This document shows positions 2,352-58,767 of a stretch of 64,000 nucleotides of DNA, piece after piece. The DNA lies in NCBI GenBank assembly GCA_951406725.2, contig OX597825.1:56916001-56980000 (forward strand), given 5' to 3'. Under the pieces are notes generated by a model. It ran no database searches. It was given only the letters and a program-made list of their open reading frames with translations, and was not told the DNA's origin. The position numbers and the translations under genes were made by a program. The DNA is from Octopus vulgaris. Lineage: Eukaryota. Position 1 is the stretch's first letter. Each line of letters begins with the position of its first letter.

Positions 2352-2678
2352 ATATATTAGCAATGATTATAATGATATAAAACATAGAGATTTATTCATC
2401 CTCAAAATTTATTTCCTCTTATTTTACAATTTTAGCATAGTATAATGGTCTTTATGGCCTACAAATTACGGGCAGTTGCAGAGGTAACCTAACACGCTTT
2501 TCGGTGCAGCTTCTTCAGGGTCTATCCATTTGGCTAGTTTCGAAGCATCTGCAACTGTCTGTAATCTATGCTGTGAAAACGCGTGTAGGTCATACAGGCC
2601 ATAATAGTATGCTGTGTAAATTTGTAAAATAAGTGGAAGTCTCCATGTTCTATATCGTCATAATTATTGCTTATATAT
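2352..2678. mobile_element. Foldback element with ~80-100 bp imperfect inverted arms and HHR-like motifs
   Basis: 2352-2450 is the diverged reverse complement of 2600-2678. A solo arm copy lies at ~4379-4472. Minus strand 2486-2522 reads GACC-CTGAAGA-AGCTGCACC-GAAA-AGCGTGT-TA-GGTT. Confidence 0.65.
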
Positions 2679-2718
2679 ACATACATATGTGTGTGTATGT
2701 GCGTGTGTTTTTGAGTAT

Positions 2719-3017
2719 GTTAGTTAGTTAGTTAGTTAATTTGGCTCAAAAGCAAATAGCAAGGCCATGTAGGGGGACATGGAGTTAAGTACAGGGTGGT
2801 GTTCATGTAAAGAGTTCAGGCCACTTGAGGTCCAGGGAGGCTTTGAACAAAGCGGTCGTCGGCATCTTCACCATCTCGTCTGGCAGCTTGTTCCACGGAT
2901 CCGCAACCCGGACGGAGAAAGCTCCTCTCCTTCGATTGAGATGAAATCGTCGCAGGTAAAGCTTTTCGGAATGACCCCGCAGCCGACGCTCTGGAGCAGG
3001 AGTGAAGAACAGCTCTT
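2719..3017 (-). mobile_element. CR1-clade LINE 3' end with (TAAC)n tail
   Basis: Minus frame LRGHSEKLYLRRFHLNRRRGAFSVRVADPWNKLPDEMVKMPTTALFKASLD matches the CR1 C-terminal RGH..FS.RV..WN.LP..FK..LD signature. (GTTA)n tail at 2719-2738 on plus. Confidence 0.85.
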
Positions 3018-3489
3018 TGTGTGAGTGTGTGTGTTTGAGTGTGTGTATGAGAGAGTGTGTGTATGAGAGAGTGTGTGCATGAGAGAGAGAGAGAGAGTGT
3101 GTGTGTGTGTGTGTGTGTGTGTGTGTGTGTGTGTGTGTGTGTGTGTGTGTGTGTGTGTGTGTGTGTGTGTGAATGTGTGTGTGAATGTGCGTGCGCGTGT
3201 GTGCGTGCGTGAAAAATAGGATAACACAGGAACTAAATTATTGTGTGAGTGTTTGGGTATATATCATATATGTTTGTGTATATATTATAGAAATCAGTTG
3301 TAATACATAAGAAAGAAGAGTGGTCTAGTGTGGACTCGTGATATGTATTGAAGTTTAAGATGGCAATTTGGTAAAGTAATTTCAAGCGATGCAAATGGAA
3401 GGAAGTTAAGTACGAAAAAGACCAAGTGGACATGGCAAGAGATGGAGGCAAGGTGAAACTTGAGTTCAAGAGATTCAATGTCCTTTCTA

Positions 3490-3900
3490 CTAAGGCACAA
3501 GGCCTGAAATTAGGTGGGGGAGTGAGGCAATCGATTAGATTGGTCCCAGTACGCAACTGGTACTTAATTTATTGACCTCGAATGAATGAAAGACAAATTC
3601 GACCTCGGTGAGAACGTAAAGACAGACGAAATACCGCTAAGCATTTCGCCCGGTATGCTAACGATTCTTATTTCTTTATTGCCCACAAGGGGCTAAACAT
3701 AGAGTAGACAAACAAAGACAGACAAAGGGATGGAGTCGGTTACATCGACCCCAGTGCGTAACTGGTACTTAATTTATCGACCCCGAAAGGATGAAATGCA
3801 AAGTCGACCTCGGCGGAATTTGAACTCAGAACGTAACGGCAGACGAAATACCGCTAAGCATTTCGCCCGGCGTACTAACATCTCTGCCATCTCGCCGCCT
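3490..3900 (-). mobile_element. Two adjacent tRNA-derived SINE copies, family B (Meta-core-like)
   Basis: Minus strand has a tRNA-like head with B box GAGTTCAAATTCC, then the core TTTCATCCTTTCGGGGTCGATAAATTAAGTACCAG. Confidence 0.85.
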
Positions 3901-55380: not shown

Positions 55381-55427
55381 TCTGGCACGGCCAGTGTTTC
55401 AGCAACATTGGTGTCTCATCAGCCAGA
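55381..55427 (-). ncRNA. Hammerhead-shaped motif, probably inactive
   Basis: Minus strand TCTGG-CTGATGA-GACACCAATGTTGCT-GAAA-CACTGGCCG-TG-CCAGA: perfect 5-bp stem I but a GUG triplet. Confidence 0.5.
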
Positions 55428-57476
55428 AGCACCCCTGAACCAAAGAATGTAATAAGAGCCAAGGATCATGTTAGTGATTTCAGTGAATAAACTGTTCACT
55501 GACCTATACAGATGAATCTAGCTACAAAGGCATGACATCTGCACCTCTGCAGGATGTACAGTACCCTACCATCTCTTTTCTCTTTCACATGATTCTCCAG
55601 AACATTTTTTAAGTCCCTTCCTTTCAGATGCCTACAATGTGTTGAACTCCTCTGCTTTATTGTCACTTTTCATAACTTTCCTCCATCTCCTCCGCCACCA
55701 CCATCACAACCACCACCACTACATCATCATCATCATCATCATGAACATCATCATCATCATCATCATCATCATCATCATCATCATCATCATCATCTTCTTC
55801 TTCTCCATCTCCTTGTCCTCCTCTTCCTCCACCTCTCTCTGATTTCATATTTTTATAACACCTTCCTGATACTTATTTCATTCCCTGAATTCAAACCAAT
55901 CAATTACTGCACACATGAACAGACACGCACACACACTCACACACACACACACAGACACACACGCGCGCGCGCACACACACACACACATAGAAGCATACAC
56001 ACTCACACACACACACGCACACACACGCACACACACGCATGGACGCGCACACACACATGTGCGAGCACACACACACGCACACACACATATGTGTGAACAC
56101 ACACACACATGTACACATGCGCACACACGCACACACACACGCACAGACTCACACATGCATGCACATACACACACACACATGCACACACACACACACACGC
56201 ACACACACACAGAGGCATATTCACAATACCATATTCACATACAGATCACCTGTGTACACGGAAAACACATTACATGGTTTGAATACAGTGAAAGAGACAG
56301 ATATTACAAAGGTGTTATAAAAATATGAAGCCAGAGAGAGGTGAGGAGGAGGAGGAGGAGGAGGAGAAGAAGAAGAAGAAGAAGAAGAAGAAGAAGAAGA
56401 AGAAGAAGAAGAAGAAGAAGAAGAAGAAGAAGAAGGTGGTGGTGGTGGAGGCAGTGGCAGCAGCAGTGGCAGCAGCAGTGGCAGCAGCAGTGGCAGCAGT
56501 GATGGCAGCAGTGATGGCAGCTGTGGTGGTGGTGGTGCCAGAAAGAGAAGAGGAGGAGGAGAAGGAAGAAAGGTATGAAAAGTGATAGGAAAGGACTATA
56601 GAAAGACCAAGATTATGTAGGTTTATGTATCTATATATATATATATATATATATATATATATATATATATGTATATATATATATACACATATATACACAT
56701 ACATACATATATATACACATAAATATATATACATTAAATGATGATGATGATATATACATATATTGATATAGTATATATGCATATATACATACATATATCA
56801 CACATAATGCACATATATACATGTGTATATATATATGTGTGTATGTATATCGCATGTGTGTGTGTGTGTGTGCGCGCGTGTGTATATGTATATGTATATA
56901 TATATATATATATATATATATATATATATATATATATATACATACATATACACACAGAGAAGAGAGAGAGTGAAAGAGACAGGCAGAGAGAGAGAGGGAG
57001 ATGCTAGTAAGTAATAACTAGGCAACTAATAATGAACTCTATATTTTCCAAGTAGAGTATTTGATATTTATTTATAGGAAACTTTACAAATTTATCACAT
57101 TCATACAAATTTATATGCTTTTTTCTATAAATAAGTATTTACAAATATATTAATTTACTAAAGCACTGAGGCATCGTTTGTGGGGTTAAATTGTAAATAG
57201 GTTTATAAGTGTGTAAGTACTTTTGTTAAACATATATTTGGAATAACCAGGAGAAACTAATCAAATTGTTCTCTATCTCATTATATAGAAAACCTACTAG
57301 GTTAACCAGTTATGTACACTGAAGAGTCGGAGATGGCAGTGGAGGTATTCATTTGTGTCCGAATAATTAATGTGTAGCAAGTGATTGAGCCTCTTCATCC
57401 TGTTGGGTGTGAAGGGTGCCTGAGGTGGCTGCTTATATATATATATATATATATATATATATATACCATCATCAGT

Positions 57477-57785
57477 GGAGGCGCAATGGCCCAGTGGTTA
57501 GGGCAGAGGACTCGTGGTTGTAGGATTGTGGTTTTGATGCCCAGACTGGGTATTGTGAGTGTTTATTGAGCGAAGACACCTAAAAGCTCCCACAAGGCTC
57601 TGGCAACGGGTGGTGGCGATCCCTGCAGTACTCTTTCGCCACAAGTTTCTGTCTTTCTTCTGTTGACCTGCTCGCTTAGCCAGCGGGGTGGCGTTATTTG
57701 AAGGCTAAAACAATGCGAAGCGCATTGTGACCAGCAATGTGTAGCAACATCTGGTAGCCTGGTCGGACACGGTGATCACAGTGAT
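57477..57785 (+). mobile_element. tRNA-derived SINE (further family)
   Basis: GGAGGCGCAATGGCCCAGTGGTTAGGGCA head, decayed B box, tail GGTGATCACAGTGA. Confidence 0.75.
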
Positions 57786-58592
57786 ATATCATCAGCAGCA
57801 TCGTTTAACATCCATCTTCCGTGCATGCATGGGTTGGACAGTTCACAGGAGCTGGCCAGGTAGAAATACCCTATGCTACTGTGTCTGTTTTGGCAGGGTT
57901 TTTAACAGCTGGATGCCCTTCCCAACATCAACCACTCTGCAGAATGGACTTGGTGCTTTTTATGTGGAACTAGCACAGGTTGGGTTTTGGCATAATTTTT
58001 ACAGCTGGATGCCCTTCCAAATGCCAACCACTTTACAGTGTGGACCGGATGTTTTTTTTATGTGGCACCAGCACTGGCAGGGTCACCAAGTAACTCACAA
58101 GACAAGGAATTATGAGAGGGGCAGGGGCATTTGGGGAGGGGATGAAAGGTTAGAGGGTGACAAAGAGGATGAAAAGTTAGAGGGTGAGAAAGAGATGGAG
58201 AGGCAAAATCAGGTGTCTTGCTTTAACAGAGGGAGCATTGGAGGAGGTGATCCAGTATCAGATGATGAAAGGTTAGAGTATGACAGAGAAATAGGAAAGC
58301 AGAAATAGGTGTCTTGCTATAGAGGAAGTACGTGGTTACCCAGTATATTACATGGTTACTTGAAGGGTTTTAGTTAAACAAAGCAACCCCAGAACTTATT
58401 TTTTTAAACCTAGTACTTATTCTAACTACTAAATGATGAGGACATAAACACACCAACACCAGTTGTCATGTAGTGGTTGGGGACAACACAGACACAAAGA
58501 CAACCTCGCAAGAATATATATACATATATATATATATATATATATATATATATATAACAAAGTGGAGTTATAGGGTACCACACGAGTGGAAT

Positions 58593-58767
58593 TATATACA
58601 AAAGAAGGTTTGAAAATGCAATTTTAAAAGATGTTTATTTACTTTACCGGTTTCACTCTTTGGAAACTTCTACATGTTACTTTTGACAATCTTTTTCCAA
58701 AGAGTGAAACCGGTATAGTAAATAAACATCTTTTAAAATTGCATTTTCAAACCTTCTTTCGTATATA
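58593..58767. mobile_element. Near-perfect 74-bp hairpin nested in the (TA)n of a minus-strand family A SINE (~58370-58850)
   Basis: 58593-58666 versus 58694-58767 differ at 2 positions. Each arm carries GAAA-CCGG-TA on its outward-reading strand. Confidence 0.9.

Follow-up and report, generated by a model that had tools for sequence, protein, structure and literature searches.

Foldback elements in a window of the Octopus vulgaris genome resemble insertion scars of Penelope-like elements with outward-facing hammerhead motifs

A 64,000-nucleotide stretch of the Octopus vulgaris genome (GenBank assembly GCA_951406725.2, contig OX597825.1, positions 56,916,001 to 56,980,000), referred to here as the window, contains four foldback elements that an earlier note, made from the sequence alone, had interpreted as palindromic, hammerhead-bearing derivatives of Penelope-like elements (PLEs). 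In order, they are E1 (2352-2678), E2 (21909-22281), E3 (37200-37520), and E4 (58593-58767). Our analysis indicates that E3 joins the 5'-truncated 3' end of a repeat of high copy number to an inverted second copy of that end, with a one-sided tail, and that it likely stems from a single PLE insertion, while E4, E1, and possibly E2 are likely scars of the same kind from other families. We assign this reading a probability of about 0.8. Hammerhead ribozyme (HHR) motifs are firm in two of the four elements, E3 and E4.

Results

E3 lies within (TA)n and consists of a tail, an inverted 88-nt 3' end, and a 239-nt 5'-truncated copy (Table 1); its arms (37197-37284 and 37436-37523) agree in 81 of 88 columns. 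It is the sole element that we compared outside the window, by aligning at 80% likeness the contigs of four runs: X1 and X12 (organism A), X3 (organism B), and X5 (organism C). Since between 2026 and 2324 contigs aligned per run, the E3 family is high-copy in all three organisms. Some depths were identical in X1 and X3, and the four runs are therefore perhaps not fully independent. Part of the E3 sequence was present in 19 of the 24 listed runs, two of which contained more than half of its words. The runs X11, X12, and X17, which have the same organism label as these two richest runs, contained only 0.06 to 0.09 of the E3 words, pointing to a divergent population, a polymorphic locus, or contig loss.

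In all four runs, contig depth rose from 2,300 to 12,700 over the spacer to 74,000 to 111,000 at the left end and 146,000 to 188,000 at the right end; because contig depth is not copy number, and because the window copy has about 45 differences from the family majority that may lower the spacer depth, only the direction of this gradient is trusted. This direction speaks against a propagated palindrome, which would give like depth in arms and spacer. Furthermore, 24 to 29 contigs in each run include the spacer and continue 5' of 37281 into unlike sequence, so that the start of the spacer is a truncation point. The tail was found at one end only: positions 37148 to 37196 are family sequence, and in X12 the reverse complement of this tail appears as a loose end after 37520.

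We then compared the joints of the family. The best-supported 15 of its 185 joints all differ, each being present in 1 to 4 contigs at a depth of at most 223, a maximum corresponding to about 4 to 5 single-copy contigs (25 to 60 for a single contig). The junction of E3 itself was crossed by one among 32 of 9,395 pieces (record 1 of X1, which matches the window exactly), and six start at 37281-37282. Four of 12 rows (of 96) join within 9 nt of the E3 arm end, which we treat as no more than a lead because the query also stops at this point. The variable centers and the lack of a deep joint point to independent inversions. Thus, of the two alternatives left by the earlier note, one-off inversion scars are favored for E3, and a self-propagating class is not supported. 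Taken together, the rise in depth toward the 3' end, the one-sided tail, and the differing joints argue that E3 is a truncated end with an inverted copy and not a propagated palindrome or a miniature inverted-repeat transposable element (MITE). Uniform length, symmetric ends, a shared interior, and a fixed target duplication, the traits of a MITE, were not found in E3.

A type I HHR core with its three stems in order is present in the E3 family majority, in the right arm of E3, and in E4, stem II being imperfect in the window copies. In the majority letters of the family (40 of 56 rows), no core position is broken, U16.1, mutated in the left arm, is restored, and a third stem II pair is gained; the HHR core is thus intact in these letters. 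Position 7 varies among family members (A, C, G, or T). Three letters that differ from the majority are common to both arms (37254/37466, 37256/37464, and 37257/37463), as expected if both arms derive from one template or one subfamily.

Within the spacer (37285-37435), the majority letters of the family include a CCAAT word at 37390 that is broken in the window copy; this word would fit a promoter upstream of the hammerhead. Three inverted copies of the E3 terminus, 9 to 17 nt long, lie at 37568-37580 and 37826-37853 and flank a SINE (short interspersed element)-like repeat at 37596-37817; they may stem from a very short E3-family insertion that the later repeat then interrupted.

To evaluate the HHR motifs, the whole window was scanned on both strands with a strict type I descriptor, using 200 block shuffles as the null. 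This descriptor was tuned after the motifs had been seen, so as to accept U3-A8 in the core and a mismatch at the end of stem I. Two matches without core mismatch were obtained (37449, plus strand, and 58683, plus strand; shuffle mean, 0.03), a number reached in none of the 200 shuffles. With at most one core mismatch, 37271 on the minus strand was added, giving three matches (shuffle mean, 0.125), which 1 of the 200 shuffles reached. All strict matches fall in E3 or E4, and shuffling of the individual elements gave a strict match in 0 of 3,000 cases for E3 and 0 to 1 of 3,000 for E4. A looser descriptor yielded 34 matches in the window and was discarded because the bulk of them lay outside the foldbacks, which indicates that relaxed matches are cheap. 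Scans against Rfam returned no hammerhead for E3 alone (three matches, none an HHR), for E1 alone (one match, not an HHR), or among 150 of the 421 matches of the whole window.

The earlier note had placed a full, decayed, or half hammerhead on both sides of all four elements. This holds only for E3, which carries a motif in both arms, and is overstated for the set of four: E4 has one full motif and, on its left arm, just a 3' half, the E1 motif is decayed, and that of E2 is doubtful. Every motif that is present does point outward from the center of its element, as had been described.

The foldbacks themselves were verified by self-BLAST and arm-versus-arm alignment. Besides E3, arms were confirmed for E1 (93 of 152 aligned columns, with long gaps), E2 (21911-22082 and 22108-22279; 143 of 173), and E4 (58593-58666 and 58694-58767; 72 of 74). 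Cross-BLAST among E1 to E4 revealed nothing in common except TA runs and chance words of 10 to 12 nt. All four are thus real inverted-repeat elements, unrelated in sequence, as the earlier note had stated. The limits that it gave for E3 and E2 did not hold: E3 begins near 37148 when its tail is included, and E2 spans about 21509 to 22385 with a 287-bp insert. The window has a GC content of 36% and contains many TA and CA microsatellites together with retroelement debris.

Table 1. Parts of the four foldbacks and solo copies of the E1 family (positions in the window)
Feature	Position	Strand	Basis and remarks
E1 left arm, outward-reading; 3' end of a repeat family that terminates in TA	2352-2482	-	Arm alignment; 81/102 columns vs solo copy 4376-4478
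E1 decayed HHR-like motif in spacer	2490-2518	-	Intact core but broken stem II and imperfect stem III; fails strict descriptor
E1 right arm, TA microsatellite at its end	2548-2678	+	Arm alignment
E1 3'-half HHR-like motif	2575-2589	+	Sequence, alignment; out of register with minus-strand motif
E1 family, solo 3'-end copy, ~100 nt	4376-4478	-	BLAST; no inverted partner within 1.5 kb
E1 family, second solo 3'-end copy, ~75 nt, TA microsatellite at end	41961-42035	+	BLAST; no partner within 1.5 kb
E2 outer part of left arm, not given in the earlier note	21509-21618	-	76/110 columns vs 22277-22385
E2 later insert in left arm, 287 bp	21619-21905		Flanking 8-bp duplication, 7/8 alike
E2 inner left arm	21911-22082	-	143/173 columns
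E2 doubtful HHR-like core, hairpin apex	22079-22112	-	Fails strict descriptor; arms would form extended stem I
E2 right arm, inner and outer, ending at (TG)n run	22108-22385	+	Alignments
E3 one-sided tail, ~49 nt, family sequence, next to (TA)n	37148-37196	-	Contig depth 20,000-87,000 over 37153-37191
E3 inverted 88-nt copy of 3' end	37197-37284	-	81/88 columns
E3 left HHR	37237-37271	-	U16.1 mutated here, intact in family majority
E3 inversion junction, 4 nt fitting both arm and family upstream sequence	37281-37284	+	In each run, 24-29 contigs have a loose end before 37281
E3 main copy, 5'-truncated: 151-nt spacer and 88-nt right arm, (TA)n at end	37285-37523	+	Alignment, contigs
E3 right HHR, core intact, 75 nt from element end	37449-37483	+	Strict descriptor
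E4 candidate tail on one side, 37 nt, bordered by (TA)n and the left arm	58556-58592	-	Sequence; proposed by analogy with E3
E4 inverted 74-nt copy, starting in loop II	58593-58666	-	Only the 3' HHR half (58645-58654)
E4 main copy, 5'-truncated: 27-nt spacer and 74-nt arm	58667-58767	+	Alignment
E4 HHR-like motif	58683-58715	+	U3-A8 core; stem III a palindrome; stem II of 5 bp, shifted two bases from register; strict descriptor

By analogy, E4 would be the E3 layout in miniature, with a TA run, 37 bases, a 74-nt inverted end, and 101 nt. The 5' half of its full motif lies inside the 27-nt spacer. The E1 motif, although decayed, keeps in order the core, an unpaired base, the pair G10.1-C11.1, and a stem I that matches. 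Copies of the E1 family are anchored at the 3' end with variable 5' truncation, as seen from the two solo ends, and such ends at TA would suit a 3'-anchored retroelement; broken MITEs could look similar. In E2, we found a single core-like motif, placed exactly at the apex of arms of about 280 bp, the other arm being free of any motif. This motif may be due to chance, since the word CTGANGA occurs 39 times in the window and loose matches are frequent. The insert in the left arm of E2 has an internal 20-nt tandem repeat and is presumably hAT-like.

A read-through transcript of the foldbacks is predicted to form a long duplex, the longest perfect helices measuring 17 to 51 bp. The predicted pairing of the HHR into the arm-arm duplex was 0.97 for E3, 0.66 for E4, 0.15 for E1, and 0.0 for E2, and the minimum-energy fold of the right copy of E3 was not the HHR shape. 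Of the earlier proposal that a transcript of either strand would hold a ribozyme and form long double-stranded RNA (dsRNA), the idea of a usable ribozyme is weakened because both E3 motifs are predicted to be buried. Editing of such transcripts by ADAR would be plausible; massive editing has already been reported for a lizard Penelope, as has an abundance of hyper-editing in octopus (PMC5625713). The change counts in the E3 contigs did not reveal a strand-biased A-to-G signature (A>G, 10 to 11; T>C, 8; G>A, 11 to 13; C>T, 6 to 8). The listed carriers of E3 include no RNA dataset and are silent on expression. Beside E3, an inverted SINE-like pair (37596-37817 and 38006-38227; 222 nt, 91%, 188 nt apart) represents a longer and stronger potential dsRNA than E3 itself.

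Other features were noted in the window. A fifth foldback, E5 (39645-39872), has arms matching in 96 of 123 columns, a 37-nt spacer, and a TA end, and contains no HHR motif by the strict descriptor; it may be a MITE or a hammerhead-less PLE end. An imperfect AT-rich foldback at 19345-19549 is flanked by microsatellites and likewise has no hammerhead motif. Four broken frames resemble, respectively, a restriction-like endonuclease of a long interspersed element (LINE) (15455-15943, plus strand), a Tc1 transposase (28010-28423, minus strand), a pogo-type transposase (31513-32079, plus strand), and a LINE (618-947, minus strand).

Discussion

A scar such as E3 would arise if the GIY-YIG endonuclease of the element nicked TA-rich DNA and its reverse transcriptase (RT) copied the RNA from the 3' end and halted early. 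A second, shorter copy would then be laid head to head, and the two copies would be sealed at a short microhomology. Because some 75 nt separate the hammerhead from the 3' end, every copy long enough would carry it reading outward, and the outward orientation can be explained without selection for palindromes. The resulting scars are predicted to be dead, with no reading frame and with the ribozyme buried in the arm-arm duplex. The earlier claim that these apparent MITEs are not DNA transposons but PLE derivatives is upheld in part: E3 is 3' anchored, bears a tail, and keeps the HHR core, all of which fits a PLE origin, while a propagated palindromic class is not supported for it.

Several points weigh against this interpretation, in addition to the limits on contig depth given above. 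Joints called at 80% likeness may be alignment breaks, short pieces crossing the junction may be hidden, and a few more copies with the center of E3 may exist among the remaining 170 joints and 9,363 pieces. Neither E1 nor E2 has any match to the strict descriptor. No RT or GIY-YIG frame among those in the window could be linked to any element. The E3 tail, at about 49 nt, is longer than the 30 to 40 nt in print, and compared with the closest HHRs of the Hydra clade of PLEs, E3 has an extra base after A9 (between core and stem II) as well as a loop III of 2 nt.

A further possibility, which we consider rather unlikely, is that only E3 and E4 are PLE derived and that the hammerhead-like words of E2, and perhaps of E1, arose by chance within ordinary MITEs or foldbacks of another kind. 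The failure of both to match the strict descriptor and the frequency of CTGANGA would be in line with this explanation, as would the long E2 arms devoid of motifs and the occurrence of the motif-free E5 in the same window. It is opposed by the ordered parts of the E1 motif, by the 3'-anchored solo ends of the E1 family, and by the placement of the E2 core exactly at the apex, and it leaves E3 untouched. Quite another explanation, that all four are DNA-transposon MITEs with a TA target preference and coincidental motifs, is scarcely credible. The inverted ends do finish in TA and Rfam reports no hammerhead, but three strict HHR matches stand against 0.125 expected, and E3 combines asymmetric ends, a truncation gradient, and variable centers with a conserved core in which position 7 is free. 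For E3, the contig comparison largely refutes this reading.

That some foldbacks are self-propagating palindromic, nonautonomous PLE derivatives, which an enzyme of a PLE would copy in full, appears improbable. An equally improbable proposal for E2 is a self-copying hairpin retroelement, in which its arms would be an extended stem I, the hammerhead would stay free at the apex (pairing to a distant partner, 0.0), and the whole palindrome would be moved by the PLE enzyme; in a wider form, hammerhead stems would set the inversion point (stem I in E2, the outer edge of stem I in E3, and loop II in E4). A few joints of the E3 family do recur in 2 to 4 contigs. Against propagation, the E3 joints are shallow and many centered and its spacer-bearing contigs continue upstream, the E1 family has solo ends, and the ribozymes of E3 and E4 would pair with their own complements.

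If the foldbacks are PLE insertion scars, as we favor, repeat libraries compiled for TA-rich animal genomes can contain short scars of this kind mistaken for MITEs. Three features would quickly give them away: a hammerhead that reads outward, variable centers, and a tail at one end only. Should inversion points truly cluster at hammerhead stems, the scars would mark the positions at which PLE reverse transcription comes to a halt.

Comparison with known systems

The earlier note had suggested extending the arms toward RT or GIY-YIG open reading frames. No such link was found, the upstream consensus of E3 reaching only 30 nt, and six-frame translations of spacers and arms contained nothing PLE-like by eye. 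Hydra frames end in a motif similar to K/N-F-L 156 to 207 nt before the core (hand count). A K/N-F-L in the 30-nt upstream consensus of E3, about 192 nt before the core, was not counted as such a frame end, its agreement being 0.62 to 0.64 and no stop following. Motif scans gave no match in metagenome contigs (E3 and E4) or viral contigs (E3), and short motifs of E1, E3, and E4 had no match in the supplement of Craig et al. 2021, where line breaks may hide matches. A literature search, mostly of titles and abstract openings, returned nothing on these families or on self-propagating palindromic PLE derivatives. The annotation of O. vulgaris lists Penelope-like families, in the part available without mention of hammerheads, and its repeat library may include the families of E1 to E4 (PMC13282606).

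The HHR of E3 is close in shape to those of Hydra-clade PLEs (PMC8557442 File S2; Penelope-3_HM and Hydra-1_Ajap), with which it shares T.T flanking a short stem II, an ACTC/GAGT hairpin stem III, and an ATGG/CCA stem I, as well as the location of the motif about 75 to 80 nt from the 3' end and insertion in (TA)n. By eye, T.T flanking stem II is found in 14 of the 26 Hydra-clade rows of that file and the ACTC/GAGT stem III in 5 of 26. E3 differs from the published octopus Hydra-1_Obim end, and its likeness to Hydra lies in HHR shape and target, which are typical and not diagnostic, the clade being defined by its RT phylogeny and by a C-terminal endonuclease without CCHH. The E3 family may be an undescribed Hydra-like PLE.

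Other ribozyme-bearing and inverted-repeat systems are similar only in part. The minimal HHRs of metazoan PLEs occur as pairs 100 to 700 bp apart on opposite strands in Schistosoma and include a U3-A8 core variant, as in E4 (Cervera and De la Pena 2014, PMC4209133); unlike them, E3 has a small hairpin and not a palindrome as stem III, and E3 and E4 lack G10.1-C11.1. Retrozymes not bounded by long terminal repeats (bioRxiv 10.64898/2026.07.22.740005) are also noncoding, with a type I HHR and a proposed PLE origin, but they are tandem direct repeats with one HHR per unit, whereas E1 to E4 are single inverted pairs. MITEs are likewise short and noncoding with inverted ends, and the E3 family departs from them in its asymmetric ends, variable centers, and 3' gradient.

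The closest parallel is found in insertions of endonuclease-containing (EN+) PLEs. These are often adjoined by an inverted 5'-truncated copy, and in many cases just one end has a tail of 30 to 40 bp (Craig et al. 2021, PMC8557442); head-to-head inverted pseudo-long terminal repeats, tails, and microhomology junctions have been described (PMC3846280). The tail has been tied to two start sites of reverse transcription, cleavage is AT rich, and HHR cleavage is dispensable in vitro (PMC11167929); Penelope-13_HM is even tabulated with a hammerhead on each strand (PMC8557442 File S2). E3 differs from EN+ insertions (PMC8557442, PMC3846280) in that no reading frame is left, and it shares with them the 5' truncation, the head-to-head inverted copy, the tail at one end, the microhomology at the junction, and the TA-rich target. 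Overall, the architecture is one that is already known (PMC4209133, PMC8557442, PMC3846280) and not a new self-copying element.

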